From positions 64,001 to 128,000 of IMG/VR virus record IMGVR_UViG_3300028827_000129: a stretch of 64,000 nucleotides of DNA. One strand, given 5' to 3'. A program made the position numbers and the translations under genes. The notes under the pieces were generated by a model, which ran no database searches, was not told where the DNA came from, and worked only from the letters and a program-made list of their open reading frames with translations. This document shows, piece by piece, positions 1,094 through 41,678 of the stretch (its first letter is position 1; every line of letters begins with the position of its first letter). The stretch comes from a virus.

Positions 1094-1576
1094 TCAAAAT
1101 AAGTTTATTTGAATATTTTCTTTCTCTTTAAGTTCTTTTCTTACTTTCATAAGAATTTTACCCAAATAATTATACTTTTTCTTATTAATACATTTACTAC
1201 AAAGACAAGCGCCCCAATAATTATCGTGCCAATAATTACCTCCTATCAGAAGGTTTTCGCCTGTCATTAAAAGGTCTCTCTTGAGTGCTTTATGATTTAT
1301 TACTGATTTTGAAGTAAATTTTAACCGTACTAACTCCGTCATAATGCGGAGTTTATTTGCATTAAAGTCTTCTCTCATAATTACATATCGCCCGCGTTTT
1401 TTAGCCATTGCAGGCGTAACACAGCGCCGAATCTCACGCTTTTCTTTTTCATGCTTACACTTCATTGCCTGGTAAGCATGCTCTACAGTCTGCCATACAA
1501 GACCGTCATATATCAATCCTTTGCATTCAGCAAAGTTTGAGAGAAAGAAATATTTGCCTCTGAAAAAGCGTATCAT
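1094..1576 (-). CDS. NADAR (YbiA-like) family ADP-ribose/N-glycosidase
   Basis: Motifs FLSNF, TVEHAYQAMK, AKKRGR, RLKF, LLMTG, WHDNYWG, NYLGKILMKVR. Confidence 0.9.
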   Translation of the reverse strand: MIRFFRGKYFFLSNFAECKGLIYDGLVWQTVEHAYQAMKCKHEKEKREIRRCVTPAMAKKRGRYVIMREDFNANKLRIMTELVRLKFTSKSVINHKALKRDLLMTGENLLIGGNYWHDNYWGACLCSKCINKKKYNYLGKILMKVRKELKEKENIQINLF

Positions 1577-3911: not shown

Positions 3912-4034
3912 CTCAAATTCCTCCTTAAACGATTCTTAGAGCCTCTTAGAGGCTATTTAACCTTAAAGCAGTATATTGGTATTACTTATACCCTTAATAC
4001 GCTTATACGGTCTCTAAAGTACCTTAAAAGAGAT

Positions 4035-4196
4035 TTACTTCTTTTCGTACTTTTCCTTCAGACGCTGCCTTGCCTTGGCGTTGTTGACTCCCTCTTTGAA
4101 GCCTTCCACAATATCCCTCTTCAGGGCATTGTAGAAGTCTTTGCCAATAGACATGCCAATGGCAAAAACAATCCCATAAATAACAATGTGTACCAT
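4035..4196 (-). CDS. small membrane protein (53 aa, MVHIVIYGIVFAIGMSIG...)
   Basis: Translated by hand; AAGGAGG SD; N-terminal TM. Confidence 0.65.
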   Translation of the reverse strand: MVHIVIYGIVFAIGMSIGKDFYNALKRDIVEGFKEGVNNAKARQRLKEKYEKK

Positions 4197-4235
4197 GTTT
4201 TACCTCCTTTTTAACAAAAAGTTATTGATTTTACG

Positions 4236-4592
4236 TTACTTTTTCCAAAAAATAACGTATTTCTTTAACTTTTCTTGCCTTTTTCTCTTCATTGCTTCGA
4301 TATTACGGTTAATGTAACGGCAAAGAAGAGATGAGAACACAAAAGCATAAAACATGTTCTCAACACCTACCGTTTCTGCCAATCCCTTAAAGAGCCCAAA
4401 ATAATGCTCAATAAGATAGGCAAGGAATGTGATTCCTGTAGCCTGGACAATATCCTTAGCATGTAAAATTTGCCTCGGATATGTCACTTTGTGCAGATTG
4501 CCTGCGAGAATCCAACCAAGGACCTTATCCCAATTTGTGATAAAGATCCCGGCACGGATGCCCCATGCTGTACCGTTGAACCACTTTTTCAT
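4236..4592 (-). CDS. membrane protein (118 aa)
   Basis: AAGGAGG SD; hydrophobic segments. Confidence 0.7.
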   Translation of the reverse strand: MKKWFNGTAWGIRAGIFITNWDKVLGWILAGNLHKVTYPRQILHAKDIVQATGITFLAYLIEHYFGLFKGLAETVGVENMFYAFVFSSLLCRYINRNIEAMKRKRQEKLKKYVIFWKK

Positions 4593-4688
4593 TTCTTACC
4601 TCCTTTACGCGGCCTATCGGAATCGATTATCCCATAGATAATCGCTTTGAGCATCACGAAGAAGACAATGATCGGAACACCACAGATC

Positions 4689-4994
4689 TCAAGCATGCTT
4701 CGACTCCCTCATGAGCTTTTTTGCCTGGTTTTTCATCCAGGTTCGCACGATAATGCCGGCCAACCTCGTCTTATGGACGGCAAGGGAAAGGATTACACTT
4801 CCCATAGCGCCCATAAGCACCAGCTGTCCGGTTGCACCGAACAGCGTGGCAAGGACGAAGTTGATCAGCACCGACGAGACGATGGACGCCCAAGGGTTTC
4901 TGAGCGTCAAGTCCCGATAAAGCGCAAATTTGTACATGAGCTTGAGCTCAATGTACGTCCCGGCAATGGCCAACAATGCAGCAGCGATAAGCAT
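4689..4994 (-). CDS. membrane protein (101 aa, about 3 TM)
   Basis: GGAGG SD; hydrophobic. Confidence 0.7.
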   Translation of the reverse strand: MLIAAALLAIAGTYIELKLMYKFALYRDLTLRNPWASIVSSVLINFVLATLFGATGQLVLMGAMGSVILSLAVHKTRLAGIIVRTWMKNQAKKLMRESKHA

Positions 4995-4995
4995 A

Positions 4996-5169
4996 TCACT
5001 TACCTCCTTTCACACCAATTTTCTCACGAATGTGAGATTCATAGCACTTTACGCAGAATACGTACTGACAGTACACATATCTGCCTTCATCATCCACAAT
5101 TACTTTTCCGCAGTAATTGCACTTTTCTCCGCCACTGCGGATGCCTTCTTCAACGATAAACGAAGACAT
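4996..5169 (-). CDS. C4 zinc-finger microprotein (57 aa)
   Basis: CNYC...CVKC; SD supports a start at 5169 rather than 5259. Confidence 0.7.
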   Translation of the reverse strand: MSSFIVEEGIRSGGEKCNYCGKVIVDDEGRYVYCQYVFCVKCYESHIREKIGVKGGK

Positions 5170-5182
5170 ACATTCCCTCCTT

Positions 5183-5326
5183 TCAAGCACGTGGAGCCTC
5201 TCCGCGAAGGAGCAAATGACTCTTCTTTTTGAAGCAATCATCACAGATGACAAAGTCACCGTAATGCCACCTCGACTCTTCCGTCAAGATATCCTTGTTA
5301 CAAAAGGGACACTTAACCTTAACCAT
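5183..5326 (-). CDS. C4 zinc-finger microprotein (47 aa), paralog of 4996..5169
   Basis: Translated by hand: MVKVKCPFCNKDIL...VICDDCFKK; AAGGAGG SD. Confidence 0.7.
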   Translation of the reverse strand: MVKVKCPFCNKDILTEESRWHYGDFVICDDCFKKKSHLLLRGEAPRA

Positions 5327-5379
5327 GCTACCTCCTTTGATTATTAATTACGATATAGCTAGCTGCTACATCACTTTGC

Positions 5380-5855
5380 TTACTCACCAGTAAGCTTGTA
5401 GAGCTTGAGCTTCAAGGCCGCAAGCTTGCTCGCCAAAACGAGATGTTGGGCCTTTTCTGTGCAGCTACAAAGCTCTTCAGAGACCTTTTCGATCTCTTTC
5501 TTTATTCTCTTTATACGCTTCTCCCTAATCTTATCAACGACTTCGTTGATAGGACCAGTAGAACACGTCTTATTGCACACGTCTGAGAGCTTCTCAGAGG
5601 CTTTCTGAGCCACTTTCTTCGTAGACTCGACTGTAACCTCCTTGATTGTCTCAGAAACGTCTCTCACGTCCTCTAAGGGCTTCTGAGAGGATTCCTTTAC
5701 TTTGGACACAATGTCATGTGCCTTCTTCTTGGCTTTCTTGTAGAAATCCGTCATAGCGATTTCTTCGAAAACCGTTTTGCTCTTATCAGTAAAGAGCACA
5801 CACCTCTTGTGCTTTTTCTTGGTAGGTACCATAGCACGTTCCTCCTTTCTGGCCA

Positions 5856-5856
<1 letters not shown>
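5380..5856 (-). CDS. Lys/Glu-rich coiled-coil protein (158 aa)
   Basis: Start overlaps the upstream stop (TAATG); helical composition. Confidence 0.7.
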
Positions 5857-6306
<450 letters not shown>

Positions 6307-6314
<8 letters not shown>

Positions 6315-6465
6315 TTGCAACCTCCTTTTCTCTCTTAATTCTGCGCACCATCACATACGCAAAGTGTCTCTTCACGTATGAGGTATGCCACGAGCAAAGT
6401 GGCTGACGGTGTTTGCCGACAATAAAGTCGGCTTTTTCTTTGCACCCAAGATAGATGCACTTCAT
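6307..6465 (-). CDS. small Cys/His protein (52 aa, MKCIYLGCKEKA...LCSWH)
   Basis: Translated by hand; AGGAGG SD; C-x4-C...C-x2-H. Confidence 0.6.
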
Positions 6466-6484
6466 AGTTTTTTATACCTCCTTA

Positions 6485-7051
6485 TTAGTTTTTGAGGCCG
6501 GCAATGACCAACCTCTTAAGCCTTTCGACTTCCTCCGCAACAATCTCAATTTCGTAGGTCGTCATAAAGGCCGTAAGTGTCACACGATACAACATCTCGT
6601 CCAACGGTTTGACTTCAATAGAAGTCAAATGCTGAACAGGAATCATAATCGTTCGACACTTATTGATAATCTCAAGAACGAAGCCGTCAATAAGGCCAAA
6701 TGTCGTTTCTTCCTTGAAAAGAAGAGCAATATTCTTCTTCTCTTCTCTTTCTTTTTTCTTGGCCTTCTTTCGGACTTCTTTTTCCACCTCCCTCAAAAGA
6801 GAGATCCACTTCTGGGAGATGTTGTAATAGCCGAGGAAGTTCCCGTACTTGTCCTTTTTCGGGATAAAAAATCCCTGCTTCCCGCAATAAGGACACTTCG
6901 GGACCTCCACTGCCGTCCCATCCTTTGAGACGATCACTTCTCGGTCTTCCCAATTGGCATTGTGGAGGGAAACCTTTTTGCCGCAACCAACCGCATGCGG
7001 CATGACCTTAGATTTTCTGTAACAATACTTAGTCACAGAGTAAACGTTCAT
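6485..7051 (-). CDS. hypothetical protein with N-terminal Zn-binding motif (CPYC)
   Basis: AAGGAGG SD. Confidence 0.75.
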   Translation of the reverse strand: MNVYSVTKYCYRKSKVMPHAVGCGKKVSLHNANWEDREVIVSKDGTAVEVPKCPYCGKQGFFIPKKDKYGNFLGYYNISQKWISLLREVEKEVRKKAKKKEREEKKNIALLFKEETTFGLIDGFVLEIINKCRTIMIPVQHLTSIEVKPLDEMLYRVTLTAFMTTYEIEIVAEEVERLKRLVIAGLKN

Positions 7052-7074
7052 CTCTACCTCCTTTATTTAAAAGT

Positions 7075-7099
7075 GCCCCAGGGGATAAACCCCTGGGGC
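7075..7099 (-). terminator. repeated intergenic hairpin, copy 1
   Basis: GCCCCAGGGG-ATAAA-CCCCTGGGGC followed by ACTTTT on the minus strand. Confidence 0.6.
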
Positions 7100-7110
7100 T
7101 AAGATTTAGC

Positions 7111-7380
7111 TTACTTACGACTCACGTAATCGTCGTAGAGATTCTTGATCTCTTCGTCGATCCCCATAATATTGACGTCCTTGTACTTGTCACGAAGCTT
7201 GACAAGCTTCTCGAACGTCGCACGGGCCTTTTTGGAGGCGTTTACCATTTTCTTGGCACGACGTCTGCCACAGACGTCGTTCTTCGCCTCCTCCATCTTT
7301 GTCTTGATTTTGACCAGGGTGTTCCTGGTACGAAGTAAAGCGTCCTTTCCTTTGCTGAGGATGTTCTTCAGTCTGCTCAT
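7111..7380 (-). CDS. basic helical protein (89 aa)
   Basis: AAGGAGG SD. Confidence 0.75.
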   Translation of the reverse strand: MSRLKNILSKGKDALLRTRNTLVKIKTKMEEAKNDVCGRRRAKKMVNASKKARATFEKLVKLRDKYKDVNIMGIDEEIKNLYDDYVSRK

Positions 7381-7411
7381 AACAGTACCTCCTTAAGTGG
7401 GTTAAAAGAGT

Positions 7412-7435
7412 GCCCCAGGGATAATTCCCTGGGGC
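7412..7435 (-). terminator. repeated intergenic hairpin, copy 2
   Basis: GCCCCAGGGA-TAAT-TCCCTGGGGC followed by ACTCTTTT on the minus strand. Confidence 0.6.
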
Positions 7436-7465
7436 GTTAGGACTTTAGGTGAATACCTCTAAGGA

Positions 7466-8416
7466 TTAGTTACCTTCCCCCATGGGGCATTCACCGCTAG
7501 CGATGACCTCCTGGCAGTAAGGCGCATCGTTCCCGTATGTGCAAATGGCGATACGGTGATACTTGCACGTCTTCCCGCCCGCGAAGCCACGCTCCGGGTC
7601 GCCGTAGGAATCACGGAGCGGCCCGACAACGTAGCCATCAAGGAAGGCCTTGATGTGGTCGGGGCTCCCGGCCTGGCAGACCGTGCGGCCGTCCTGGAGG
7701 GTAGAAACGAAACAAACCCCCTCACGAGCCGCAGCCTCCGGCAACTCCGGAACGTGAATGTCCAGGAAGTTGGCGTAGCTAAGTACTTTGCCATCGAGAT
7801 CTTCCCGGTCTTCCGGATCAAAATAATGAACCAGAATCTTCCGAGACATTCTGATGGCGTCACGAGCCGCTTCCACGTCCCGAAGGATCTCCTCCTCCGA
7901 ACGGCCCTGGAACTTCGCCCTGGAACTGATGCGCCAGCGCATCAGTTCGTCGGGGTCCACCCCAGGACACTTCCCGCGATAAGCAGCGGCCAGACAGTGG
8001 TCCGCTGCCGCAACGAGCTTCAGATTCTCATGAAACTCGTTGCACCTCGGGTAGAGGAGCTTCAGAACCTGCCCCAGGGACGAGGCTTCCCAATACTTCT
8101 TGGGATCCTTCCCGTACCCAGGGTCCCCAGGCCGGTGGTGGTCGAGGAGCTTGCTGTCGTTGAGGCTAGCTGCCTCGCCAACAAACTCACACTCCACCCG
8201 AACGATCTGGGTCGTCGGGTCCTTTACGATCTCCGGGATCGTAGCCTCCGCCTTGTAAGCCTCGAAAGGCTTCACTCGGCAGAGGGTTTCGGCATCGCCA
8301 CAATTGCGAACGGCCGCGTAAGCCACCGGGATTCGGTGTGCTCGCAGCAGCTCTTCGATGGCTGCCATTTCGGGGTCAGGCGCCCCCAGAATGAAGAAGA
8401 GGGTGTTAGTACCCAT
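7466..8416 (-). CDS. DHH-superfamily phosphoesterase-like protein (316 aa)
   Basis: ILGAPDPE, RVEC, LLDHH, AAADH in DHH motif order; AAGGAGG SD. Confidence 0.5.
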   Translation of the reverse strand: MGTNTLFFILGAPDPEMAAIEELLRAHRIPVAYAAVRNCGDAETLCRVKPFEAYKAEATIPEIVKDPTTQIVRVECEFVGEAASLNDSKLLDHHRPGDPGYGKDPKKYWEASSLGQVLKLLYPRCNEFHENLKLVAAADHCLAAAYRGKCPGVDPDELMRWRISSRAKFQGRSEEEILRDVEAARDAIRMSRKILVHYFDPEDREDLDGKVLSYANFLDIHVPELPEAAAREGVCFVSTLQDGRTVCQAGSPDHIKAFLDGYVVGPLRDSYGDPERGFAGGKTCKYHRIAICTYGNDAPYCQEVIASGECPMGEGN

Positions 8417-8448
8417 ATGTACCTCCTTCTCGTGTGTGTTTTAGCCCC

Positions 8449-8685
8449 TTAGAGGGCCAGAGACCGAATTTCGGTCTCGGTGACTTTGCCACCCAAAACG
8501 GAGACAATCTCCTGGATGGCGAGGAGCCTTTCGCTCTGAGTAGGCACCAACTCCTTGAGAAGGTACCTGTAGAACTCAGAGTCTTTGCCGCTAAACCAAG
8601 CGGCCTTTATCGCCAATTTGGCGTTCATACTCTCAACACAGTCTGTATCAAGAGTATTGATGGCGTTAAGCAACTTGTCAGCCAT
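8449..8685 (-). CDS. hypothetical protein (78 aa)
   Basis: Probable start MADKLL at 8685; the longer start lies inside the terminator; weak SD. Confidence 0.5.
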   Translation of the reverse strand: MADKLLNAINTLDTDCVESMNAKLAIKAAWFSGKDSEFYRYLLKELVPTQSERLLAIQEIVSVLGGKVTETEIRSLAL

Positions 8686-8727
8686 GTTTGTATTAACCGT
8701 TACTCTTAAGGGCGTACCTGAGTACGC

Positions 8728-8765
8728 AAAAAACAACGGCTACGACAAGAATGTCGTAGCCGTTG
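8728..8765 (-). terminator. intrinsic terminator
   Basis: CAACGGCTACGACA-AGAA-TGTCGTAGCCGTTG 14-bp stem plus T-tract on the minus strand. Confidence 0.8.
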
Positions 8766-8787
8766 CAGCCCTTAAGACTTTCGAGAA

Positions 8788-9099
8788 TTATCTGCACTGA
8801 ATCTGGATTTCGACTGCATCCTCGCCAATATGACTGAGGAGGGTTTCGAAATCCTTATCCCCAGGCTTAATGACGAAGCCGGCAATCGTCTGCCAGCTGA
8901 CGTTAACCTTCTTTAGAAGGTCTCTGCTTGCCTGAACACCAATGACTTTACCGTTGTCCTTGCAACGGATTATGACGTTCTGCCCCGTCGTATAAAGCAT
9001 GACTTTGTGGGAACGAACCCACAGGGCAGAACCGATTGCCGCCGTGCCAATGGCAACGATGGCGACTTTTTTGATAACATTCACAATCTTCTTACTCAT
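8788..9099 (-). CDS. membrane-anchored protein with two conserved Cys, paralog 1
   Basis: N-terminal TM; AAGGAGG SD before ATG 9099; aligns with 9190..9462. Confidence 0.75.
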   Translation of the reverse strand: MSKKIVNVIKKVAIVAIGTAAIGSALWVRSHKVMLYTTGQNVIIRCKDNGKVIGVQASRDLLKKVNVSWQTIAGFVIKPGDKDFETLLSHIGEDAVEIQIQCR

Positions 9100-9189
9100 A
9101 ATGTCCTCCTTAAATCGGCGTACCTTATACGCCATTATTAGCTGAACTTAGATGTTCAGCTCTTTAGGGTTTTTGGAGATGTTTGTGGG

Positions 9190-9462
9190 TTATTTACAAT
9201 TAACCCTGATCTCCATAACGTCGTCTCCGACGTTTTTGACGAGGGTCGTGAACACCTCGTCTTCCGGCCGGATGATCAGTCCAAGGTAGGACTTCACTCC
9301 GGTCTTTTTGAGGAGTTCAGAGTCGGGCTGAATCCCGACAATTTCTCCTCCCTTTTCGCACCGAAAGATAACGGTGCGGTCGCTGGCGTAGAAGTCGAAC
9401 TTCCACGTCACGTACACCGAAATGGCGAGAAAAAGTGTCAGAACAACCAGAAACCTTTTCAT
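9190..9462 (-). CDS. membrane-anchored protein with two conserved Cys, paralog 2
   Basis: N-terminal TM; AAGGAGG SD. Confidence 0.75.
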   Translation of the reverse strand: MKRFLVVLTLFLAISVYVTWKFDFYASDRTVIFRCEKGGEIVGIQPDSELLKKTGVKSYLGLIIRPEDEVFTTLVKNVGDDVMEIRVNCK

Positions 9463-9542
9463 CTGTGTCCTCCTTAGTTTACCCTTTAAAAGGGTTGTTT
9501 GTCCTTTAATAAGGACTTTCTTTAGTCTTTTACGACTCCTCC

Positions 9543-10325
9543 TTAGAGGAGGTAGTCGTAAAAGACGAAGTAGGGCAGCTTGTCAAGTCGCCTCTTTCCC
9601 CCATCGGCGTACCCGACGATGGGGTATTCCGCCTCCTGGGCGTGGCCACCAAAGTATTCCCTGGTGACCAGGTGCCCAGACCAGGTATTATCCCCGTCAT
9701 ACCTGATCCGGAGGCGGAAGAGCTCCTCGTGCTGCGGCTTGTACAGCCGCTTTGCAATGAGCTCGACCTCCTCCCATTTCTTTTCCCCCTCCTCGTCGGA
9801 GAGGTTCCCTCCGAGGATGCCCTCCAGGATCTCTTCGATGAGACCCTTGACCCGGGCCATCGCCTCGGGAGTGTCCCACTCCCCTTCAGCGATGCCCAGC
9901 GAGGGCACCTCATCGAGGGAGATGACGTCACTCCCGCAGTCACGCGGGGTGACGTCCCCGAACCTCTCGACCTCGATGAGGTCGGGTTCCTCCCTCTTGT
10001 AGAGGAACTCTTTTTTGGGGTGGTCCTGGCGGAAGATCCGCTGGACCTCCCTGTCGGAGGAGACGAGGATCTCCCAGTCCTCGTCCCTGGGGTCAATAAT
10101 GACCGCCCTTCCGAGGATGCGGGAGATGGCCCTAACGGCCTTGATCTCCTCCTCCTTTCCAACCCGGAAGTCGAAAACGACCGGGTTGTGAGGGCTATCC
10201 TCGCCGAAGTACTCGGCGAGGTACCCCTCCGCCTCTTGAATGCCGAAGAGCTCATAGAGCTCCTCGGCCTTTGCCCGACTAACATGTCGGGACGCCTCGT
10301 GGATCGCCATTTCAAACTTTTCCAT
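9543..10325 (-). CDS. acidic hypothetical protein (260 aa)
   Basis: AGGAGG SD before ATG 10325; strong GC3 codon bias. Confidence 0.8.
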   Translation of the reverse strand: MEKFEMAIHEASRHVSRAKAEELYELFGIQEAEGYLAEYFGEDSPHNPVVFDFRVGKEEEIKAVRAISRILGRAVIIDPRDEDWEILVSSDREVQRIFRQDHPKKEFLYKREEPDLIEVERFGDVTPRDCGSDVISLDEVPSLGIAEGEWDTPEAMARVKGLIEEILEGILGGNLSDEEGEKKWEEVELIAKRLYKPQHEELFRLRIRYDGDNTWSGHLVTREYFGGHAQEAEYPIVGYADGGKRRLDKLPYFVFYDYLL

Positions 10326-10524
10326 GGCTATCCTCCTTTCCCTTTGTTTTGCCGGTGAAACCGGCGTCTTTAGGCCTTGTAGAGGCCCTTTACCCGCCAA
10401 ATGCGGGTATTGATCCTCTTAATGAGGATCTTTTCCCCCTTCTGACGGGGGTCATGGGAGGCCGTAGCCTCCCCCTTTTCGCGGGAGATCCACCTCCCGC
10501 CAATACGACAGGACCGGGCCTTCA

Positions 10525-10707
10525 TTAGAAGCCCTCCCGGTCCTTTTCGCCCTGAAGAATCAGGGCGGTGAGGTCGTGGATGTTGGGGCCGCGGTCCCCC
10601 TTCATCCACATCTCGTACTGGGAAATCCAGTACTTCCTTTCGCCGCTCTTGAAGCGGTCCTTTCCGTACTCGCTGAGTACGGTTTTGAGAAATCTCTTTT
10701 TCGTCAT
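10525..10707 (-). CDS. hypothetical protein (60 aa)
   Basis: AAGGAG SD. Confidence 0.65.
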   Translation of the reverse strand: MTKKRFLKTVLSEYGKDRFKSGERKYWISQYEMWMKGDRGPNIHDLTALILQGEKDREGF

Positions 10708-10742
10708 CTTCTCTCTCCTTTCCTTCCTTTCCTTTTCCCGCT

Positions 10743-10898
10743 CTAGCGGGTGCTGTTGGTCAGAGTGACCATGTTCTGACCAACCTTTGCCCAGTCACTT
10801 TCAAACTGGGCTTTGGCGGCGTCGAACAGGCGACATCCGCCGTAAATCATGACAACCATCGCCACGGCGATGGCGATGGCCGTCTTCTTCACAGTCAT
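10743..10898 (-). CDS. signal-peptide/lipoprotein-like microprotein (51 aa), in frame with the upstream gene
   Basis: Translated by hand: MTVKKTAIAIAVAMVVMIYGGCRLF...; no clear SD. Confidence 0.55.
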   Translation of the reverse strand: MTVKKTAIAIAVAMVVMIYGGCRLFDAAKAQFESDWAKVGQNMVTLTNSTR

Positions 10899-10937
10899 CT
10901 TCTTCTTCGTGGTCTTCTTGATCGTCTTCTTTGTGGT

Positions 10938-11882
10938 CTACTTCTTCGCCGTGGTCTTCTTGGCCTTCTTCGCGGCCTTGAAGGCCGCGGCCATCGGGCC
11001 GCGGCCCTTAGCCGCGATGGCCCCGGCCGGTTTGGCCGGGGCCTTTTTGGCCATGACCCAGGCCACGGCCTCGACCACGAGCCGAGGCAACGGCTCGTGG
11101 CCGGAGAGGGCCTTCCTGGCCCCCTCCAAGGCCCTGACGTCGTGCCGCCAGAGGCGGCCGACGCCAAGGCCCTTCATGGCCTGGCGCTGGGCCTCCTTGG
11201 AGGCCCGGCGGGTTTCCTGCAGCCGGGCCTCCTTCTTCTTGAGGGAGGCCTCCTCCTCCAGGAGGCCCTCCATGGCCTCCTGGAGGTCCTCAAGGAGACC
11301 CAGGGCATCCGCCCCGGCCTCCCCGGCCTCCCGGATCTCGGCGATGGCCTTCCAGCCCTCGCCGAGGAGCCGGCGGATGTACCGCCGCCGGCGGCTGACC
11401 TCCTTCAGCCGCTTTCCGGCGACGTAACCGCGCCAGTAGGCGCGGTCCACCGACTCAAACCACGTCGCCGGCCTTTCGGCCAGCGACGTGATGTCAATGA
11501 GGGCCTTCTGGGTCTTCCTGGCCCAGAAGGCCTTCTCCTCGCCCCTCTTGAGGGCGAGGAGAAGGGCCCTCTCCTCCCGGTTAAGGGAGGAGAGGGCCTC
11601 CCTGAAGGCCTTCTCGCCCTTCTTGATGGCCGCCTCAAGGGCGGCCTCCTCCTCAGCGGACCGCTGAGGAGGAACGACCTTCTCCCCCTCCTCCTTCATC
11701 CGCACCTTCTCGGTACGGATAAAAGACTTCGGCCGCGGCTTGTAGGCCTCGGCCTTCTTGGCCTCGGCCTTGGCCTTCCTGGCCGAGGCCTCGGCTTTGC
11801 GGGCCTCGGCCCTCCTGGCCGAGGCCTCTTCCTTTGCCTGCTCCAGGAGCAGGCGCACATCGTAGAGGTCCATGGTCTTCAT
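10938..11882 (-). CDS. Ala/Lys/Glu/Arg-rich helical protein with histone-H1-like C-terminal tail
   Basis: AAGGAGG SD; KKAPAKPA...KAAKKAKKTTAKK; GC3 bias. Confidence 0.8.
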   Translation of the reverse strand: MKTMDLYDVRLLLEQAKEEASARRAEARKAEASARKAKAEAKKAEAYKPRPKSFIRTEKVRMKEEGEKVVPPQRSAEEEAALEAAIKKGEKAFREALSSLNREERALLLALKRGEEKAFWARKTQKALIDITSLAERPATWFESVDRAYWRGYVAGKRLKEVSRRRRYIRRLLGEGWKAIAEIREAGEAGADALGLLEDLQEAMEGLLEEEASLKKKEARLQETRRASKEAQRQAMKGLGVGRLWRHDVRALEGARKALSGHEPLPRLVVEAVAWVMAKKAPAKPAGAIAAKGRGPMAAAFKAAKKAKKTTAKK

Positions 11883-12148
11883 GGCTCCTCCTTAAGCCCT
11901 ATCACGTAGCCAGGCAACGTCAAAGACGCCGTCCATGGCTTACGTTTCCCAGCGGTCGGGCTAAGCCGCTGGGCTCTTTCGGGCCTTATCGGCCCTTTTT
12001 CTGGCATCGTCTCAAGGACGTGCCAAAGAATCCCTCCTACAAAAGCAGAAGAGATTCTTTGGCACCCCGAATCACTTCAGGGATGCCGTGTGGGGGCGGG
12101 CCGTACAGCATCGGGGCGGCCCGCCCCCGGAGGTCCTCCGGTACCTGG

Positions 12149-12487
12149 CTATGCAGCCAGATACCGAAGGATCCGATCATCGTCGTCCTGGCAGCCCACC
12201 AGGACAACGAGTCGCCTGAGAGCGCAATAGCGCTCTCCAGACAACTGCAGATGCTCCCGAAGGAGCACCTTGAACCTCCTGATGTCGCCGCCGCAGTATG
12301 CGGCGGCCCGGAGGGCCATCAGTTCCTCCGGGCTCCTGGCCATGTCCGGATCCAGGGTTGCGAGGCCCTGGAGGACCGCCAAAACCATCTCCTCGAAGGA
12401 GACGACCACCTTCTCCTTCTGCGCCTCGGCCTTCTTGGCCGCCCTCCTGGCGGCCTTTTTCAGTTTCTTCTTTTCACGCTTTTTCAT
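12149..12487 (-). CDS. hypothetical protein with basic N-terminus (112 aa); first gene of the leftward block
   Basis: AGGAG SD; GC3 bias. Confidence 0.7.
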   Translation of the reverse strand: MKKREKKKLKKAARRAAKKAEAQKEKVVVSFEEMVLAVLQGLATLDPDMARSPEELMALRAAAYCGGDIRRFKVLLREHLQLSGERYCALRRLVVLVGCQDDDDRILRYLAA

Positions 12488-12489
12488 GA

Positions 12490-13100
12490 CGGTTCTCTCT
12501 CCTTTCTGGGCCTTTTTATGACCTGCCCAGGTCTGATTATGGGGGTAAAACCCCCTCTATATACCCGATTGCTCGGGCATATAGAGGGGGCCTCTGCCAG
12601 AGCCAGAGGCCACATACGGTGGGTGCCTAGGCATACTAGGATATGCCCACTATGCCCCATCATGGGGCGTGGCATGGTCTCTGGCAGAGGCCCACCAGCC
12701 CAGGGATCGATGGACATCCACTCCCTGGGCATGGGGCGGGATATTTATCGCTACGCGCCTCCTTCTCCAGACACATACTCACCTCTAATCATGGCTCGTT
12801 AGAGCCATTGGGCTTTCGTGCCTATGGAGATTTTTCCGCCACAGGCGCGTGCCACCACCCGGGGATGCAGATGCCTGCAGAGCCCCGGGCTGCCAGGTAG
12901 CAGCTCGGTGGACTTGTACGCGATGCACGTGGCATCACTGGGGCGCTGGCAGTCCCCTCCTCCAGGAGCTGGGGTTACGATGGGTGGGGTAGAGAGGCTG
13001 GAGAACCTCTCTGAGACCCCCCGGGCTCGTAACTGCCCTTTAGCTCCCTTTGGAGCCTCATTACACCAGGCCTTCTCCCCCTACCTCTCACCCCTGTCCT
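12490..13100. other. GC-rich, hairpin-tiled, probably non-coding region
   Basis: Many adjacent inverted repeats; no convincing ORF with an SD. Confidence 0.6.
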
Positions 13101-13223
13101 TCTTTTTGGTTGTTTCCTTATGTTCTTGTTTTGAGGGCTTTGCGAAAAAAATATATATATTTTTTAGGGTGTTATATAGGGTTATTTCCTTTATTTGTGA
13201 GGGATTATATTATACTTGTGGTT

Positions 13224-13412
13224 ATGGATGATATAGAGAAGATATATATAATTGCCAAAGAGAGGGAATGTAGTGAATATGATGTATTTGTAAAGGCTGG
13301 TAAGATATGGGGTATTGATGATATAGATTATTATTTTAAGAATTATTTATTAAGAGATATAGTTCCTTATTTTGTAAGGGATTATATAAGGAAGGTGTTA
13401 TTAGATGGATAA
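13224..13412 (+). CDS. hypothetical protein (62 aa), C-poor gene
   Basis: Protein-like translation from ATG 13224; only 5 C in 189 nt. Confidence 0.6.
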   Translation: MDDIEKIYIIAKERECSEYDVFVKAGKIWGIDDIDYYFKNYLLRDIVPYFVRDYIRKVLLDG

Positions 13413-23945: not shown

Positions 23946-24530
23946 ATGGCTAATATAAGGTCTAATGAAGGGTTTAATAGCTGGGATGCAATAAGACTTG
24001 GTACCGGGCTTATGTTAGGCGGATGGGGTATCCGCATAGCGTCTAAAGCGATGTCTCGCTTTGTTGGAGATACTCTTTTCGGTACTTTAAAAGGTGCTGG
24101 TAGTTATGCTATGAGAAAGGGGACAAAGCTTGCTGGTAGGTCTTATGAGTTCTCTAAGAATGCAGCGACTTCTGCATATTCTGGGTTTCTTTCTGGCTAT
24201 AGAGGTGAGGCTGGTGTAGGTACAGCTTTTATGGCAGGTAGTCGCGCAAGGGCTTTAAGTGCTGCAGCAAGGAGGAGCGCTTCTGCTTTTTCTTATGGTT
24301 TTTCTGGACGTGGGCCAATGTCTGCTTTTGGCGGCACTAAATATACCCGCGCTGCTGCTAGTCTTGGCAATTATTTTGGCGGTGGTGCGGCTGGCCTGGG
24401 AGCTTCTAAAACTTTATATAGCAGATTGCAGCCTCATCTTGGTGATATTTCTCAAAGGGCTTTTACTAGAGCTATGAGGGTTGGAGGAGCATCTCTAGGC
24501 GCTTATATGCTAAACCCGTTTAGTGATTGA
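23946..24530 (+). CDS. Gly/Ala/Ser-rich basic protein
   Basis: Low-complexity composition; located between TerS and TerL. Confidence 0.6.
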   Translation: MANIRSNEGFNSWDAIRLGTGLMLGGWGIRIASKAMSRFVGDTLFGTLKGAGSYAMRKGTKLAGRSYEFSKNAATSAYSGFLSGYRGEAGVGTAFMAGSRARALSAAARRSASAFSYGFSGRGPMSAFGGTKYTRAAASLGNYFGGGAAGLGASKTLYSRLQPHLGDISQRAFTRAMRVGGASLGAYMLNPFSD

Positions 24531-24538
24531 GGCAATTT

Positions 24539-26425
24539 ATGGCAGACAATGATTCTCAACGCTATGTAAAGAATGGTCCAAACTTCGACAATCCTATCTG
24601 TCAGGAATGTCTTAAAGAAGAGAGGAACCATTATGTAAAATGCAGAGGGATTATAGACCCGGAGAAGTTTATACCTCCGGGTCTTGCTACTTCACTTGAT
24701 GAGGATCAATTGCTTGAGTTAAAGGCAGCTTATGACCCTGTTACTTGGGCCAATTTATATCTTGGCTGGTCTCCAAGGTCTAGTAGGGAGTATCATTTTT
24801 ACGATAGAGATTCAAATATACCAGATATACATATAGAGGCGGGGATTGAGTATCAAAAGACAATGTTAAACTGTTCTGCCTACAGGACTATGTATCGCGT
24901 CGGTAGGCGTGCAGGTAAAACAGATGCTTTATGCGTGTTTACTCTATATAAGCTTGTAACAAATAGTGATTATAAGGTCTTGTTTATTGCCCCGCAAAAA
25001 TCTCATGTAGATAACTTTTTCGAGAGATTTGATAAGTTAATAGAAAGTAGTGATAGAATTTCTGCTGATGTTGTCAGAAATGTATCGTCGCCACATAAGA
25101 GGATAGAGTTTAGTAACGGCAGTCGTATTGTAGGCTTTACGTCTGGGTCTTCTTCTGGCTCGCAAGCCACCAATGTTCGAGGGCAGTCAGCTGATTTAAT
25201 TGTTATAGACGAGTGGGATTATCTTAATCCTGAAGACATGAAAGCTATCCGGGCTATTTTGATGACAACCCCGGATACTATTTTAAAAGGGGCGTCTACC
25301 CCTTCTGGGCGTAGAGATCTTTTCTATGTTGAGTGCAACACGATTGGCCACAAAGAATTTCATTATCCATCACAGGTTTTACCATTCTGGAATGATGACA
25401 TGGAGCGCGAAATGCGCTCTATGTATACGGCAAATGAATATAGACAAGAGATTCTTGCCGAATGGGGCTTTGATAATGTTGGTGTCTTCCAGAAAGAACA
25501 TGTAGATAAATGTCTTTTAGATTATTCATATGAAGATATAAAGCCTGAGTCAAAGTTTTTATATGGAATAGGCGTTGACTGGAATGACGATAAAATAGGG
25601 ACGCAAATTTATGTAATAGGTTATAGTACTGAAGATTGTTTATTTTATGGAGCTGCTAAATATAATGTTGCTAAAGCTGGATGGACCCAAGCTTTAGCCA
25701 TAAAGAAAATTATAGAACTAAACAGAATATGGAATCCAGTTTTTATTTACGTAGACGAAGGATATGGAGCGACGCAGATTCAATTATTACGGCAATATTC
25801 TTATGAAAAGATAGGTAAAGTTTCGCCTAGCGATCCAGATGTCAAGTTAAAGGATATAGTAAAGGGCATCAATTTTTCGTCTAAGGTAGATGTTAGAGAT
25901 CCTATTACAAGGCAGCCTGACAGAAAAGATATGAAGCAATTTTTAGTTCAGAATGCTGTTAGGCGGGTAGAAGATGCTACTGTCAGAATACCATCGACTG
26001 ACAAGGAGTTAATTGGACAATTACTTAATTATATTATTTTAAGGCGTAGCGCTACTGGCAAGCCTATTTATAGCCCGAATAGTACTAAGATAGGCGACCA
26101 TTTATTAGATGCATTTATGCTTGCTTTACTTGGGTTTACTTTAGAATATGGAGACCTTATTAAAACCAAGGCCGTGTCTACTGTCAGCTTTGTGAATACT
26201 GGTGATAGCACTAGAGAAGATTTAATCCAAAAAAGATATCCAGAAGAAAGATCGGTTGATAGAACCAATTATTTTGCTATTGGAAGAACAGGGACTGGCA
26301 AAGTAACAAGGGATAATATTTGGAAATGGCCAGGGTTTTTGAGAGATGAACCATTACCTAGACCTAACAGAATGTTTCTTGGTCGTGGTAGACGCAACCA
26401 TATAAATAGAAGGAGCGTTTGGTAA
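24539..26425 (+). CDS. terL: terminase large subunit
   Basis: Walker A GRRAGKT, Walker B LIVIDE, ASTP coupling motif, nuclease GIGVDW and DHLLDA. Confidence 0.93.
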   Translation: MADNDSQRYVKNGPNFDNPICQECLKEERNHYVKCRGIIDPEKFIPPGLATSLDEDQLLELKAAYDPVTWANLYLGWSPRSSREYHFYDRDSNIPDIHIEAGIEYQKTMLNCSAYRTMYRVGRRAGKTDALCVFTLYKLVTNSDYKVLFIAPQKSHVDNFFERFDKLIESSDRISADVVRNVSSPHKRIEFSNGSRIVGFTSGSSSGSQATNVRGQSADLIVIDEWDYLNPEDMKAIRAILMTTPDTILKGASTPSGRRDLFYVECNTIGHKEFHYPSQVLPFWNDDMEREMRSMYTANEYRQEILAEWGFDNVGVFQKEHVDKCLLDYSYEDIKPESKFLYGIGVDWNDDKIGTQIYVIGYSTEDCLFYGAAKYNVAKAGWTQALAIKKIIELNRIWNPVFIYVDEGYGATQIQLLRQYSYEKIGKVSPSDPDVKLKDIVKGINFSSKVDVRDPITRQPDRKDMKQFLVQNAVRRVEDATVRIPSTDKELIGQLLNYIILRRSATGKPIYSPNSTKIGDHLLDAFMLALLGFTLEYGDLIKTKAVSTVSFVNTGDSTREDLIQKRYPEERSVDRTNYFAIGRTGTGKVTRDNIWKWPGFLRDEPLPRPNRMFLGRGRRNHINRRSVW

Positions 26426-39896: not shown

Positions 39897-41678
39897 ATGG
39901 CTGATTTTACAAATCTTCCAGGTTTAACAGTCACTAGGGCTGATGGCAACTTGAACCTTCCTGGTCAAGATATTCGCCCTCGTGTTCTTATTCTTGGTAC
40001 TGCTTCAAAAGGAACTTCTTTTGGACTTTATCGAGTCGACCGTTCCGATGAAGCTGAATACGTTTTTGGGTCTGGTGACCTAATTAAGGGAATGTATGAG
40101 GTGGGTGCTGCTGGAGCTAGAACAATTTATCTTATGAGATTAGGGCGGCCAGCTACATTAACTGGTTTTTTGAGTGCTAATACTTCAGCTAAGGTCACTA
40201 TTTTAAACGAAGATCAGACTTATGTCGATAATGTCACTATTAGCTGGGATGACACTAATGGATATCTTACTGTAACGCATACTAACCCAAATACTGGTGC
40301 TAGTGACGTTTTATACGATAATGGTTCTTCTGTTTATCAAACTGATAAAGTGGCAGTTGATGAAGGAGCTGGTTTTGCTGCTGGAGATAATGGTGGCTCT
40401 GATATTACAGCCACTGCGTTTCCAAGTGTTTCTGGTACATATACTCCTGTAGTTACTTCATCTAATGCTTCTAAGATGGCACTTTATGAAATGTTAGACG
40501 AGGCTTTTAAAGAATTAGAAGCTGCTGATATGGATATGATTGTACCAATGAATGTGCACTTAGATGACCCAAATATTGCCGAAGGCGCTACTGGTGTTTC
40601 TATGACAGATTATCCTGCAGCTGGTGGCTCTAATGATATTCTTGGTAAGGTTTACAAGCAAGAATATCAAGGCAAGACGTATTATTGGTGGGATACAGAT
40701 AACGATGGTTCAGCTGACATTTTCCCATCAGTTGGTTCAGCTTCTGCTACTACTGATATTGATGGCAATACCATCGCAGCTTCAGCATATGAGTCTGTTA
40801 ACTTCGCTCATCTATTAGCAAGTTATTGCTACAACTTGTCTAGAAATGAAAATGAGGCAAGGGGCTTTATTGCAGTTAAGCCACCGACTTCATATGCTAT
40901 TAAGGATTTAGTTGCATGGATCGGATCAGCTCCGACACGCGATAGCAATGGTAATGTGACGGCAAATGGGACAGGACTTCTTGGTAATAAATGGATGGTT
41001 GGCACTACTGACGTTGGAACCCCTGGCTTTTTTGCCACAGACAATGATATGCCTAGCGGGAGCCCAATCCTGGACTCGAATGATCAGAAGATTGATATTG
41101 GTCAGTATATTTCTGTTGTAGCTTCTCCTGTGACATTTTATAATTCTTCTGACAGTACTGGTCTTGGATATACTGGCACTGGTCATACTGCGTATGCAGG
41201 CCTTGCTGCAACGCTGGACAGTAAAGAAGCTCCTACATATAAAACTGTTCCTGGAGTATCGTTGCATTACGCGCTCCATAAAGACAAGTTGGATGCGTTA
41301 GTGGGTGCTGGTTATGTTACTTTTTCAACAAAGACAAATCGAGTCGCTGTCTTGGATGGCATCACCGCCGCATTGTCAACATCTGACTATAAGCGTTATT
41401 CTACTTTCGCTATTGCTTCTGATGTGATTACTGATATTCGCAGAGTATGTGAGCCGTTTATTGGTCGCGTACTTGCTTCTGTTGAGCGCGCGGCGATCAA
41501 TACCGCAGTTGAAGGCGTTCTAAATACGCGTCGTGAACAGAATTATATTTCTAACTATGAATATCAAGTTACTTCTACTGCGGCAGAATTGACTGCAGGA
41601 ATTGTTAATGTAGAGGTTATTATTGTTCCTGCTTTTGAGATTAAGAAGATTCAGCTTACAATTTCTATGAGTGTTTAA
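39897..41678 (+). CDS. contractile tail sheath protein
   Basis: N-terminal LPG..., ILGTASKG; C-terminal IVPAFEIKKIQLTI; size. Confidence 0.9.
   Translation: MADFTNLPGLTVTRADGNLNLPGQDIRPRVLILGTASKGTSFGLYRVDRSDEAEYVFGSGDLIKGMYEVGAAGARTIYLMRLGRPATLTGFLSANTSAKVTILNEDQTYVDNVTISWDDTNGYLTVTHTNPNTGASDVLYDNGSSVYQTDKVAVDEGAGFAAGDNGGSDITATAFPSVSGTYTPVVTSSNASKMALYEMLDEAFKELEAADMDMIVPMNVHLDDPNIAEGATGVSMTDYPAAGGSNDILGKVYKQEYQGKTYYWWDTDNDGSADIFPSVGSASATTDIDGNTIAASAYESVNFAHLLASYCYNLSRNENEARGFIAVKPPTSYAIKDLVAWIGSAPTRDSNGNVTANGTGLLGNKWMVGTTDVGTPGFFATDNDMPSGSPILDSNDQKIDIGQYISVVASPVTFYNSSDSTGLGYTGTGHTAYAGLAATLDSKEAPTYKTVPGVSLHYALHKDKLDALVGAGYVTFSTKTNRVAVLDGITAALSTSDYKRYSTFAIASDVITDIRRVCEPFIGRVLASVERAAINTAVEGVLNTRREQNYISNYEYQVTSTAAELTAGIVNVEVIIVPAFEIKKIQLTISMSV

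Follow-up and report, generated by a model that had tools for sequence, protein, structure and literature searches.

Architecture of the locus

The window, which is the whole stretch of 64,000 nucleotides analysed here, lies in an uncultured 170-kb phage contig of the tailed type, with terminase and sheath genes present and no tRNAs found. It contains a block of 13 leftward genes extending over ~8.4 kb, from ~13.1 to ~4.7 kb, and the interval flagged in an earlier note (10326-13100) is the promoter-proximal third of this block (Table 1). The block genes are most likely of early or accessory type. We observe that both the GC content and the folding excess climb towards 13.1 kb, where the leftward genes start, and then stop suddenly, the block reaching up to 69% GC versus ~36% in the remaining window. 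The right edge is sharp, with z ~0 from 13060 onward. Towards the left the block fades gradually, the folding excess persisting into genes at 44-47% GC before reaching its limit at 4689; the next gene (4236-4592) gives a z of -1.1.

The block proteins have an amino-acid make-up unlike that of the rest of the phage, and their genes are ORFans, with the exception of the 316-aa gene (7466-8416), whose product belongs to a widespread unnamed family with 1644 homologues and has its best homologue on a 65-70% GC contig from the same sample. For the 260-aa ORF, a search among 1.8 billion representatives returned only the self-match. The 314-aa ORF is of low complexity, with GC1/2/3 of 0.67/0.48/0.91. 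Upstream of the first leftward gene, the stretch 12488-13100 contains an 18-bp hairpin (12551-12590) and a nested long hairpin (12589-12700), with no gene in one independent gene call and no Rfam family, and the spacer 10326-10524 leaves the next gene's ribosome-binding site (GGAGGA) unpaired.

Table 1. Features of the folded leftward block and its boundaries (window coordinates; z for coding sequences against synonymous permutations, for non-coding stretches against dinucleotide shuffles).
Feature	Coordinates	Strand	Observations
Right boundary	13062..13200	.	Short pyrimidine-rich (+) tract; GC from ~60% to ~30%; AT palindrome 13146-13165
Non-coding stretch 5' of the first leftward gene, probably leader	12488..13100	-	z -9.8
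112-aa ORF, GGAGA ribosome-binding site	12149..12487	-	z -5.3; 6 perfect hairpins in CDS
Intergenic spacer	11883..12148	-	Five or six hairpins including 21-bp and 12-bp stems; z -7.5
314-aa ORFan ORF, densest part of the block	10938..11882	-	24 perfect hairpins, stems up to 14 bp
Two small ORFs, 51 aa and 60 aa	10525..10898	-	Hairpins within CDS; z -4.5 and -2.8
Intergenic spacer	10326..10524	-	Tandem short hairpins, 5-8 bp stems, A-rich linkers between; z -6.3
260-aa ORFan ORF	9543..10325	-	Strongly folded CDS, z -8.6
Two paralogous small ORFs (9190-9462 and 8788-9135)	8733..9462	-	z -3.2, -2.9
First sense-strand intrinsic terminator	8766-8733	-	15-bp stem and T run
95-aa ORF and 316-aa ORF	7466..8736	-	Folded CDSs, z -7.0, -6.1
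Two paralogous terminator hairpins (7412-7435 and 7075-7099)	7075..7435	-	
Distal weaker block part, four ORFs	4689..7051	-	44-53% GC; z -5.1, -3.8, -4.8, -8.7

Folding excess of the block

The inverted repeats listed in the earlier note are all present where it placed them. Folding the three non-coding gaps as minus-strand RNA, we found that each is more stable than every one of its dinucleotide shuffles, with -98.5 versus -69.6 kcal/mol in 10326-10530 (z -6.3), z -7.5 in 11883-12150 and -311.7 versus -249.5 kcal/mol in 12488-13100 (z -9.8). When perfect hairpins were defined as Watson-Crick stems of at least 7 bp with loops of 3-9 nt, 38 were observed in 10326-13100, far above the expectation of 1.6 +/- 1.2, followed by 14 in 7400-10325 (1.7 expected) and 13 in 4000-7400 (1.3 expected), whereas a control region at 20-26 kb contained 2 (2.1 expected). 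Stems of at least 10 bp number only about a dozen, and most of the predicted structure consists of short imperfect stems. The note had confined the tiling to non-coding DNA; the gaps are indeed dense, but 31 of the 38 perfect hairpins fall within coding sequence, with the 314-aa ORF (10938-11882) alone accounting for 24, and the feature reaches down to ~4.7 kb. Across the whole 170-kb contig, 120-nt windows have a mean z of ~ -0.4, and the bin at 8-12 kb is the strongest of the genome (z -4.9). Both strands fold beyond dinucleotide shuffles from ~8.4 to 12.95 kb, with z values of -4.0 and -4.6.

We compared the fold energy of each coding sequence with synonymous permutations that keep both the protein and the codon usage. 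All 13 block ORFs are more stable than their own permutations (z -2.8 to -11.6), and the excess is thus independent of amino-acid sequence and codon usage. It is largest in the 314-aa gene, which gains 127 kcal/mol (-580.6 versus -453.5 kcal/mol; z -11.6, and z -19 against codon permutation) and has perfect intragenic stems of up to 14 bp. Among the controls, the z ranges from +0.3 to -2.2 in late genes of the phage, from +1.2 to -2.7 in the neighbouring minus-strand genes at 14.7-18.6 kb, and from +0.5 to -3.6 in genes of a GC-rich contig (L001). The suggestion of structured RNA leaders is supported but proved too narrow, as whole transcription units fold, ORFs included. In total, ~62% of the block mRNA bases are predicted to be paired, and translation starts are more open than other positions (unpaired probability of 0.54 versus 0.38 elsewhere), this being the case in 11 of 12 genes.

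The region from 3.5 to 13.2 kb contains 66 perfect hairpins, of which only 11 have 3-nt loops; they share no stem or loop motif, and stable RNA tetraloops are not enriched among their loops. Rfam 15 gave no match in the window at gathering score, with only sub-threshold chance matches in 10300-13250. Neither direct-repeat families beyond low-complexity coding repeats, nor DnaA boxes between 93 and 19139, nor a -35/-10 pair on either strand of 10326-13100 were detected. True terminators on the minus strand occur only at 8766-8733, 7435-7412 and 7099-7075. Since no terminator-like site lies on this strand in 10326-13100, we rejected intrinsic (Rho-independent) terminators as an account of the hairpins there, and the claim that they are not ordinary terminators holds for the transcribed direction, in which the first such site is at 8766-8733.

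Conservation of the fold in related phages

Contigs from several relatives of this phage, of which we studied four in detail, carry the same ramp in the same place on the map, although no homology was detected between their block proteins and those of this phage. In G001, which is syntenic with this phage at a TerL identity of ~42%, the z ramps from -2 to -7 over 99-110.5 kb and is ~0 from the start of the rightward late genes at 111 kb; its block enzymes recognised by Pfam (MoxR AAA, radical SAM, SAVED) reach z values of -9.7 to -11.2. The contigs L030 and L031 display a ramp like that of G001, with the excess falling with distance from the operon start, and in G002, G005 and G006 the ramp is present but weaker. 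The feature is absent from Moorella phage MTATph1, a cultured TerL relative. The sister blocks have a GC content of only 38-49%, compared with up to 69% in the window block, and encode domains that handle cyclic-oligonucleotide signals (SAVED and Csx3).

We examined compensation in the three contigs with orthologous genes (G001, L030 and L031), and the compensatory evidence refers to this sister group only. Among orthologues of 68-80% nucleotide identity, 149-183 of ~360 predicted pairs occupy the same alignment columns, against a null expectation of ~2. Pairs in genes in which both sides had changed were still paired in 203 of 360 cases (56%), versus 613 of 1686 (36%) among phase-preserving slid control pairs (odds ratio 2.3), and in the non-coding leader the corresponding counts were 102 of 147 (69%) and 241 of 601 (40%; odds ratio 3.4). 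RNAalifold identified 52 compensatory pairs among 341. One-sided stem substitutions showed no excess of pair-preserving changes (36% versus 37% in controls). The covariation that the earlier note had proposed to look for is found in the sister group, and since these phages keep folding through compensating mutations, the fold itself appears to be under selection. The block genes of the window are mostly ORFans, and selection on this phage's own block is therefore suggested by analogy with its relatives.

Strand preference

Watson-Crick hairpins fold both strands, and therefore the strand assignment rests on modest asymmetries. The summed excess energy is -1085 kcal/mol in the sense strand and -821 kcal/mol in the antisense strand, the antisense excess thus amounting to ~75% of the sense excess, and the sense excess is equal or larger in 8 of 10 genes. 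Single transition mismatches in stems give G:U in the sense strand 17 times and A:C 7 times, and wobble outcomes in orthologues number 278 versus 249 (control ratio 0.89). These asymmetries, with reciprocal double counting included, have p-values of ~0.02-0.06, and modestly favour the mRNA-sense strand. RNA is most likely the active molecule, the structure exerting its effect in the transcripts.

Comparison with known systems

Genome-scale ordered RNA structure (GORS) is known from positive-strand RNA viruses, and the genomes of the single-stranded RNA phages MS2 and Qbeta are heavily base-paired. The block resembles GORS in its coding-wide fold beyond order controls, placed mostly at synonymous sites, with ~60% of bases paired and, in the sister group, with compensatory change. 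It differs in that GORS covers whole RNA genomes, whereas here the folding belongs to a single block of 8 kb in a double-stranded DNA genome of 170 kb, is spatially graded and ends sharply on one side, and the remaining genome is ordinary. Because the GORS family is defined for RNA virus genomes, the GORS-type folding of the 13 block ORFs is a functional likeness only. Hairpins that stabilise bacterial and phage mRNAs, such as the ompA 5' stem-loop, REP and 3' terminator hairpins and the RNase III-processed ends of T7 early mRNAs, similarly combine stable stem-loops that hinder RNases with accessible ribosome-binding sites; however, the known stabilisers sit singly or in small numbers at message ends, in untranslated regions, in contrast to the continuous tiling of leader, spacers and ORFs observed here (38 perfect hairpins in 2.8 kb).

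The first-step-transfer DNA of T5 carries untranslated repeat regions and an injection-stop signal near one end, with the inverted-repeat region upstream of the pre-early genes (bioRxiv 10.1101/866236). The block would resemble them as a region close to a genome end in a large virulent phage, ahead of pre-early genes, rich in inverted repeats and palindromes and conserved in relatives, but the T5 elements are non-coding and sequence-conserved, with direct repeats and eight DnaA boxes (bioRxiv 10.1101/866236). The window block has neither DnaA boxes nor direct-repeat families, and most of its hairpins lie in ORFs, for which reasons injection-stop repeats of the T5 type, which would be sited in a long terminal repeat at the first-injected end, were rejected.

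Proposed explanation

The explanation that we favour, and to which we give about an even chance, is that the nucleic acid of the block has been selected for near end-to-end local hairpins that act as an armour of the early transcripts. Short stable hairpins would cover the coding sequences as much as the leader and the spacers between genes, and the raised GC content would be a by-product of selection for folding. The fold would work in the mRNA, where most bases would be paired and the ribosome-binding sites left open. Such a coat would limit access to the earliest transcripts of the infection, possibly by single-strand-specific RNases or by RNA-guided sensors such as type III CRISPR, or it may slow spontaneous decay; a protective purpose would be in keeping with this. 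Shielding is plausible, given that secondary structure in the target RNA cuts type III CRISPR detection up to 100-fold (PMC8682760) and that SAVED and Csx3 domains are encoded in the sister blocks. The need would be greatest while only one genome copy is present and the block's own proteins have not yet acted, and the fading of the fold with distance from the operon start would mirror a fading need.

A narrower version, which we regard as unlikely, is that the coat is a counter-defence at the nucleic-acid level against RNA-guided sensors (type III CRISPR, Cas13) and the single-strand RNases that these switch on. Every stretch of the first transcripts would be kept base-paired and thus hidden until proteins of the same block take over, which in the sister phages may include the SAVED-domain and Csx3-type proteins as candidate cyclic-oligonucleotide binders or degraders. 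The raised GC content would then be the cost of closed stems, and the ramp would follow the order of gene exposure.

Alternative explanations

We also considered readings in which the hairpins regulate expression, or reflect mutation or origin. They could time or dose expression, by slowing ribosomes, by coupling the translation of neighbouring genes or as RNase III-type processing sites for a temporal programme; the tiling crosses gene junctions with the ribosome-binding sites just open, and the excess declines from the operon start here and in L030 and L031, as a graded programme predicts. Regulation needs few sites, however, not ~60% pairing over 8 kb that includes radical SAM and MoxR genes, and there is no common motif for one factor to read, so that we find this quite improbable. 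Still more doubtful is a by-product of mutation with no function, through frequent exposure of single-stranded DNA, fold-back or template-switch repair, or GC-biased conversion near a hotspot of recombination or packaging at 13.1 kb. In its favour, perfect stems with short loops are numerous, GC and hairpin density climb jointly to one fixed point and then stop, and the gene densest in hairpins, an ORFan of low complexity, could accept changes of several bases at once. Against such an origin, pairs keep their positions although the nucleotide sequences diverge by 20-32%, compensatory double changes are in excess, conserved enzymes show an excess as strong as that of ORFans, synonymous sites are arranged for pairing with the proteins intact, and ribosome sites are spared; to some extent, stem-disrupting variants are also already seen to be purged. 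That the segment is foreign DNA or an assembly chimera, its hairpins merely reflecting the source, is very unlikely, as the junction is identical in two assemblies (possibly built from the same reads), the left edge is gradual with the excess reaching genes of 44-47% GC, the ramp of related phages lies at the same place at only 38-49% GC, and the GC-rich control genes of L001 lack the excess. The GC contrast (69% versus ~36%) at a sharp edge, the ORFan proteins of deviant make-up and the GC-rich contig bearing the best homologue of the 316-aa protein speak for it, and part of the block's character may be of foreign origin, because it is GC-richer than the sister blocks and its proteins are compositionally unlike the phage. 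The virion RNA polymerase of N4 uses three promoters with a conserved stem of 5-7 bp and a 3-nt loop, and the plasmid Frpo element, on DNA that arrives in the cell single-stranded, is a long imperfect hairpin whose stem rebuilds the sigma-70 -35 and -10 boxes. Hairpin promoters of either kind, which the earlier note had put forward, would share with N4 the short DNA hairpins in the early DNA of a phage possibly carrying its own polymerase. The region may be early, and 11 of the 66 hairpins do combine a short stem with a 3-nt loop, but these loops are all different, stem and loop sequences are not conserved, and the 66 hairpins are unrelated, dozens instead of a few, and mostly intragenic; together with the lack of a -35/-10 pair within 10326-13100, this leaves both the N4-type and the Frpo-type proposals extremely improbable.

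Another reading, rather unlikely in our view, places the function in the DNA. Because Watson-Crick pairing folds both strands, a general single-stranded DNA or cruciform role is possible, and the hairpins could act as cruciforms or single-strand folds in the DNA that enters the cell first, with the block adjoining a physical genome end. First-injected DNA is consistent with the geometry, since the ramp peaks at an abrupt boundary with the leftward operon start, here and in several related phages. The nearest TerL relatives include 0305phi8-36-type phages, which have fixed ends and long terminal repeats. Against this reading, the assembly of this phage closes on itself with a 54-bp overlap. A two-barrel virion RNA polymerase that prefers single-stranded DNA would be offered a template strand able to fold back once the enzyme has passed, freeing the transcript. 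The perfect Watson-Crick stems and the large z on both strands would suit this, as would the preference of the crAss-like virion polymerase gp66, which in vitro transcribes single-stranded or denatured but not double-stranded DNA (bioRxiv 10.1101/2020.03.07.982082). Yet the larger excess and the G:U bias are found in the sense strand, not the template strand, short imperfect stems (about a dozen of at least 10 bp) suit cruciform extrusion poorly, and selectively open ribosome sites are an mRNA property. Moreover, G001 has the ramp without a detectable homologue of the window's polymerase candidate, the 1542-aa ORF in the same gene slot having no detectable similarity to the window's 1463-aa protein (48398-52789). 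In Thermus phage P23-45, a tape-measure-fused virion polymerase transcribes a pre-early block adjoining the genome end (PMC10770324). The proposed likeness lies in a gene block by the genome end, thought to enter first, and in transcription by a two-barrel virion polymerase during entry, but the P23-45 enzyme uses a conserved AT-rich promoter motif, not hairpins, with a 26-nt terminator motif, and hairpin tiling is unreported there (PMC10770324). No shared motif of the P23-45 type was found in the window block.

Significance

Coding-wide selection on secondary structure is textbook knowledge for RNA viruses. To our knowledge it has not been described for a block of several genes in a phage with double-stranded DNA, and a narrow literature search found no precedent. 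The fold seen here is strong and spatially graded; it is conserved in place across phages without detected homology of their block proteins, and compensating mutations maintain it even in recognisable enzymes. For annotation, the z against synonymous permutations together with a local rise in GC provides a simple computable signature for such blocks in metagenomic phages, and a GC-rich island in an AT-rich phage genome need not mean foreign DNA. For the biology of these phages, the finding raises the testable question of what the first minutes of infection ask of a message, with resistance to RNases, invisibility to RNA-guided immunity and fit with a virion-borne polymerase as possible demands.

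Hairpin excess across a block of early-type genes

We found that the interval at 10326-13100 contains 38 perfect hairpins (stem of at least 7 bp, loop of 3-9), compared with 1.6 expected. All inverted repeats listed in the earlier note are present, and upon folding the three non-coding gaps as minus-strand RNA we obtained z of -6.3, -7.5 and -9.8 (folding energy against dinucleotide shuffles, negative being more folded), which no shuffle equals; here and below, every structure is a predicted one. The hairpins had been described there as a feature of non-coding DNA, but 31 of the 38 fall inside ORFs, and the 314-aa ORF alone, judged coding by its codon-position GC (0.67/0.48/0.91), accounts for 24, its longest perfect stem being 14 bp. 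Leftward, 14 perfect hairpins are observed at 7400-10325 (1.7 expected) and 13 at 4000-7400 (1.3 expected), whereas the control at 20-26 kb has 2 (2.1 expected). In sliding 120-nt windows, z lies between -3 and -9 on both strands, near-continuously over 8.4-12.95 kb, and is about 0 directly past 13.1 kb; in a contig-wide scan, 8-12 kb of the window stands out at -4.9 against a background of about -0.4.

Because GC-rich Glu/Leu and Ala/Gly codons are mutual reverse complements, two stricter nulls were applied to each ORF of the block, a codon permutation and a synonymous-codon permutation that keeps both protein and codon usage. All block ORFs are more folded than their codon permutations, and the synonymous-permutation z is -6.1, -7.0, -2.9, -3.2, -8.6, -2.8, -4.5, -11.6 and -5.3 from 7466 to 12487, while the four ORFs at 4689-7051 give -5.1, -3.8, -4.8 and -8.7. 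The controls gave +0.3 to -2.2 in late genes, +1.2 to -2.7 right of 13.1 kb (plus-strand cassette and minus-strand genes), and 0 to -3 in genes left of 4.6 kb. These nulls rule out an artefact of codon composition, and high GC is ruled out as the cause by genes on a GC-rich contig of the same sample (L001; 65-70% GC, z +0.5 to -3.6) and by the blocks of sister phages, still affected at 38-49% GC. Given these scores and the well-behaved controls, the unit comprises 13 genes and their spacers in a block of 8.4 kb; the interval at 10326-13100 is its densest third, and the synonymous sites of the block are arranged for pairing.

The phage and the proteins of the block

The 170,083-bp contig, of which the window covers bases 64001-128000, has ends sharing a 54-bp overlap, so that the assembly is self-closing, and it encodes a contractile-tailed phage with a large terminase and a sheath (table), the nearest terminases being those of Acinetobacter phage ME3, Moorella phage MTATph1 and Bacillus phage 0305phi8-36. 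The first 50 kb of the contig have a GC content of about 28%, and the structural genes one of about 36%; inside the window GC rises from about 44% at 4 kb, reaches 68% at 11-12 kb and, near 13.1 kb, falls over about 100 bases to 35%, a junction included in identical sequence of the ENA and JGI assemblies, both possibly from the same reads. Genes of the GC-rich stretch run leftward on the minus strand with GGAGG-type ribosome-binding sites, and a NADAR-domain protein (E 3e-22) is encoded farther along the same leftward arm.

The ten ORFs in 7.4-12.7 kb had no match in Pfam and PHROGs searches, the distal ORFs at 4.7-7.1 kb had none in Pfam, and blastn of 7000-13150 against GenBank phages returned nothing. 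Relatives of the 260-aa and 316-aa proteins were not found in viral contigs, and the 260-aa and 314-aa proteins are ORFans in large protein libraries. For the 316-aa protein there are 1644 homologues, which form an unnamed family without a Pfam domain; one member, in a bacterial contig (L035), has 61% GC and folds strongly (z -7.1) while its contig has about 38-43% GC, and it sits in a 7-kb island of small ORFs that is itself excess-folded. Two adjacent small ORFs of the block are paralogues whose products each have a hydrophobic helix at the N terminus and resemble one another in the C-terminal half. A 15-nt motif comprising the T-run flank and one stem arm recurs in two near-identical terminator hairpins, and the terminator module has therefore been duplicated.

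Block proteins (window 4689-12487) have an IVYWREL fraction of 0.426 and a charged-minus-polar bias of 0.188, compared with mesophile-like values of 0.384 and 0.033 in the whole-phage proteome. Either nucleotide constraints have shaped this composition or the block has a different origin, and since both its GC and its protein composition are unusual, we leave room for a partly foreign origin.

Occurrence in related phages

Because the block proteins lack relatives, flanking conserved genes were used to find related phages; a TerL (large terminase) search of viral contigs found nothing with a single query and succeeded only with a two-sequence alignment. The 155-kb relative G001 (IMGVR_UViG_3300005573_000055) is syntenic with the window's phage across the structural module, with TerL about 42% identical. 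GC in its block is raised (40-56% versus about 35%), and 11 kb contain 37 perfect hairpins; z ramps from -2 to -7 over 99-110.5 kb and then drops to about 0 at 111 kb, where the leftward genes and the rightward late genes start. Enzymes in this block are equally folded (MoxR-type AAA z -9.7, radical SAM -11.2, SAVED-domain -11.2), a 406-aa and a 778-aa protein reach -24.6 and -12.8, and late genes are at about -1. The G001 block has orthologues, at 57-60% protein identity, on two more contigs (L030 and L031), where the excess is likewise present, with z of -7.7 to -10 where the operon begins and weaker values farther downstream. Among farther TerL relatives, G002, G005 and G006 show a weaker form of the block, with raised GC and negative z, lying several kb upstream of TerL. 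The block is absent from the cultured relative Moorella phage MTATph1, and none was found in the sampled parts of G004. From this occurrence, the feature is a sub-lineage trait, tied to map position and not to particular genes.

A structured non-coding leader of about 350 nt before the MoxR gene is conserved in the three sister phages (G001, L030 and L031); its nhmmer profile had no match in the window, and there is thus no leader RNA family common to both. The G001 operon start has a tract of about 240 nt, nearly pure pyrimidine on the plus strand and purine on the sense strand, and in the window a far shorter pyrimidine-rich run lies at the block boundary; such a tract could be a triplex-forming or promoter-associated element. 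Gene products of the sister blocks include a SAVED-domain protein, a radical SAM enzyme, a MoxR-type AAA ATPase and a Csx3-family protein of 97 aa, which are candidates for countering defence signalling by cyclic oligonucleotides. The place that the 1463-aa candidate polymerase has in the window is taken in G001 by a 1542-aa ORF, flanked by homologues of the 1181-aa and 1376-aa proteins and without detectable sequence similarity to the candidate.

Coordinates of features in the window, in related phages and in a bacterial contig
Feature	Location	Strand	Remark
NADAR-domain protein	window 1094-1576
Terminator hairpins	window 7075-7099, 7412-7435
316-aa protein	window 7466-8416
Homologue of 316-aa protein	L035:10001-10915		GCA_964427585.1, CAYRVC010000002.1 (NCBI)
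Paralogous small ORFs	window 8788-9135, 9190-9462
Pyrimidine-rich run	window ~13062-13120
Large terminase	window 24527-26425
Sheath	window 39897-41678
Pyrimidine tract, G001	L008:4290-4530
1542-aa ORF, G001	142924-147550 (L025/L026)
Sister-phage leader	L008:3775-4139, L030:5363-5717, L031:8722-9070	- (L008)	compensatory changes
Sister-block SAVED, radical SAM, MoxR-type AAA and Csx3-family genes	L012:16174-16668, L012:16721-17572, L008:2917-3774; L030:13103-13396; L031:16693-16986	- (L012, L008)

Conservation of pairing

Covariation in related genomes, proposed earlier as a check, was found in the sister group as an excess of double changes, while the window's own block has no orthologues. The compensatory test covered three sequences with MFE-derived pairs, the sister blocks having 68-80% nucleotide identity. 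Across the three orthologous blocks, the predicted pairs that occupy the same codon-alignment columns number 149-183 of about 360 for the 400-aa gene and 103-133 of about 240 for the AAA gene, compared with only about 2 under phase-preserving random offsets, and of the 341 consensus pairs from RNAalifold, 52 show a compensatory double change. When the structure was taken from one sequence alone and scored in the others, with partners slid by whole codons as the control, pairs changed on both sides were still paired in 203/360 cases versus 613/1686 in genes (odds ratio 2.3) and in 102/147 versus 241/601 in the sister leader (69% versus 40%; odds ratio 3.4), counts that include reciprocal comparisons, making nominal p-values too small. 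One-sided changes showed no pairing preference (36% versus 37% in the control). Translation starts are predicted to be more often unpaired than the rest of the block (0.54 versus 0.38; 11/12 genes, p 0.002). Three observations (the excess of double changes, folding just as strong in conserved enzymes, and ribosome sites left open) favour selection acting on pairing over an origin by mutation alone.

Transcripts, DNA and known systems

A perfect repeat can fold on either strand, and a large excess persists in antisense; the summed energy gain over synonymous permutations is -1085 kcal/mol for sense versus -821 for antisense, with sense at least equal to antisense in 8/10 genes. G:U pairs, when allowed, help only the sense strand, single transition mismatches in otherwise perfect stems read as G:U in the sense strand 17 times and as A:C 7 times, and changed pairs in orthologues include 278 sense versus 249 antisense wobbles (control ratio 0.89). 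Together with the open translation starts, this lead of the sense strand is moderate evidence that the transcripts are what matters. A role at the DNA level, in which the hairpins act in first-entering DNA and serve a virion polymerase, keeps some weight, as the polarity of the block fits first-entering DNA and the crAss-like virion polymerase favours single-stranded templates (bioRxiv 10.1101/2020.03.07.982082); however, the P23-45 virion polymerase relies on an AT-rich motif and not on hairpins (PMC10770324), and no homologue of the window's candidate polymerase was detected in G001, nor in G002, G005 and G006.

The analogy drawn earlier with N4 hairpin promoters and plasmid Frpo promoters did not hold, each model failing on a defining feature that was tested, as did T5 injection-stop (iss) repeats with DnaA boxes. 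Intrinsic terminators fail likewise, and sense-strand terminator-like sites are absent from 10326-13100, in agreement with the earlier view that these are not ordinary terminators. Mobile hairpin elements (MITE or REP-like) are excluded because the hairpins share no sequence, and Rfam searches (gathering and E-value thresholds) and tRNA/tmRNA scans found no known RNA gene. In behaviour, the closest parallels are the genome-scale ordered structure known from RNA viruses and the terminal stabiliser hairpins found in mRNAs of bacteria and phages; to our knowledge, neither extends to a graded block of several genes in a DNA phage.

Possible protection of the first messages

Folded block RNA is predicted to be highly stable, about 57% paired at 75 °C versus about 20% for late mRNAs. 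Despite this, adaptation to heat is not relied on, because the whole-proteome composition has no thermophilic signature (the IVYWREL fraction corresponds to about 25 °C by the Zeldovich formula). Protection by folding appears the most economical reading, in which hairpins would shield the first messages of infection while one template exists and phage-made help is absent. An anti-defence version of this mRNA protection, though unproven, is made attractive by two observations: type III CRISPR sensing is reduced, by as much as two orders of magnitude, when the target RNA is structured (PMC8682760), and the sister blocks carry SAVED and Csx3 domains.
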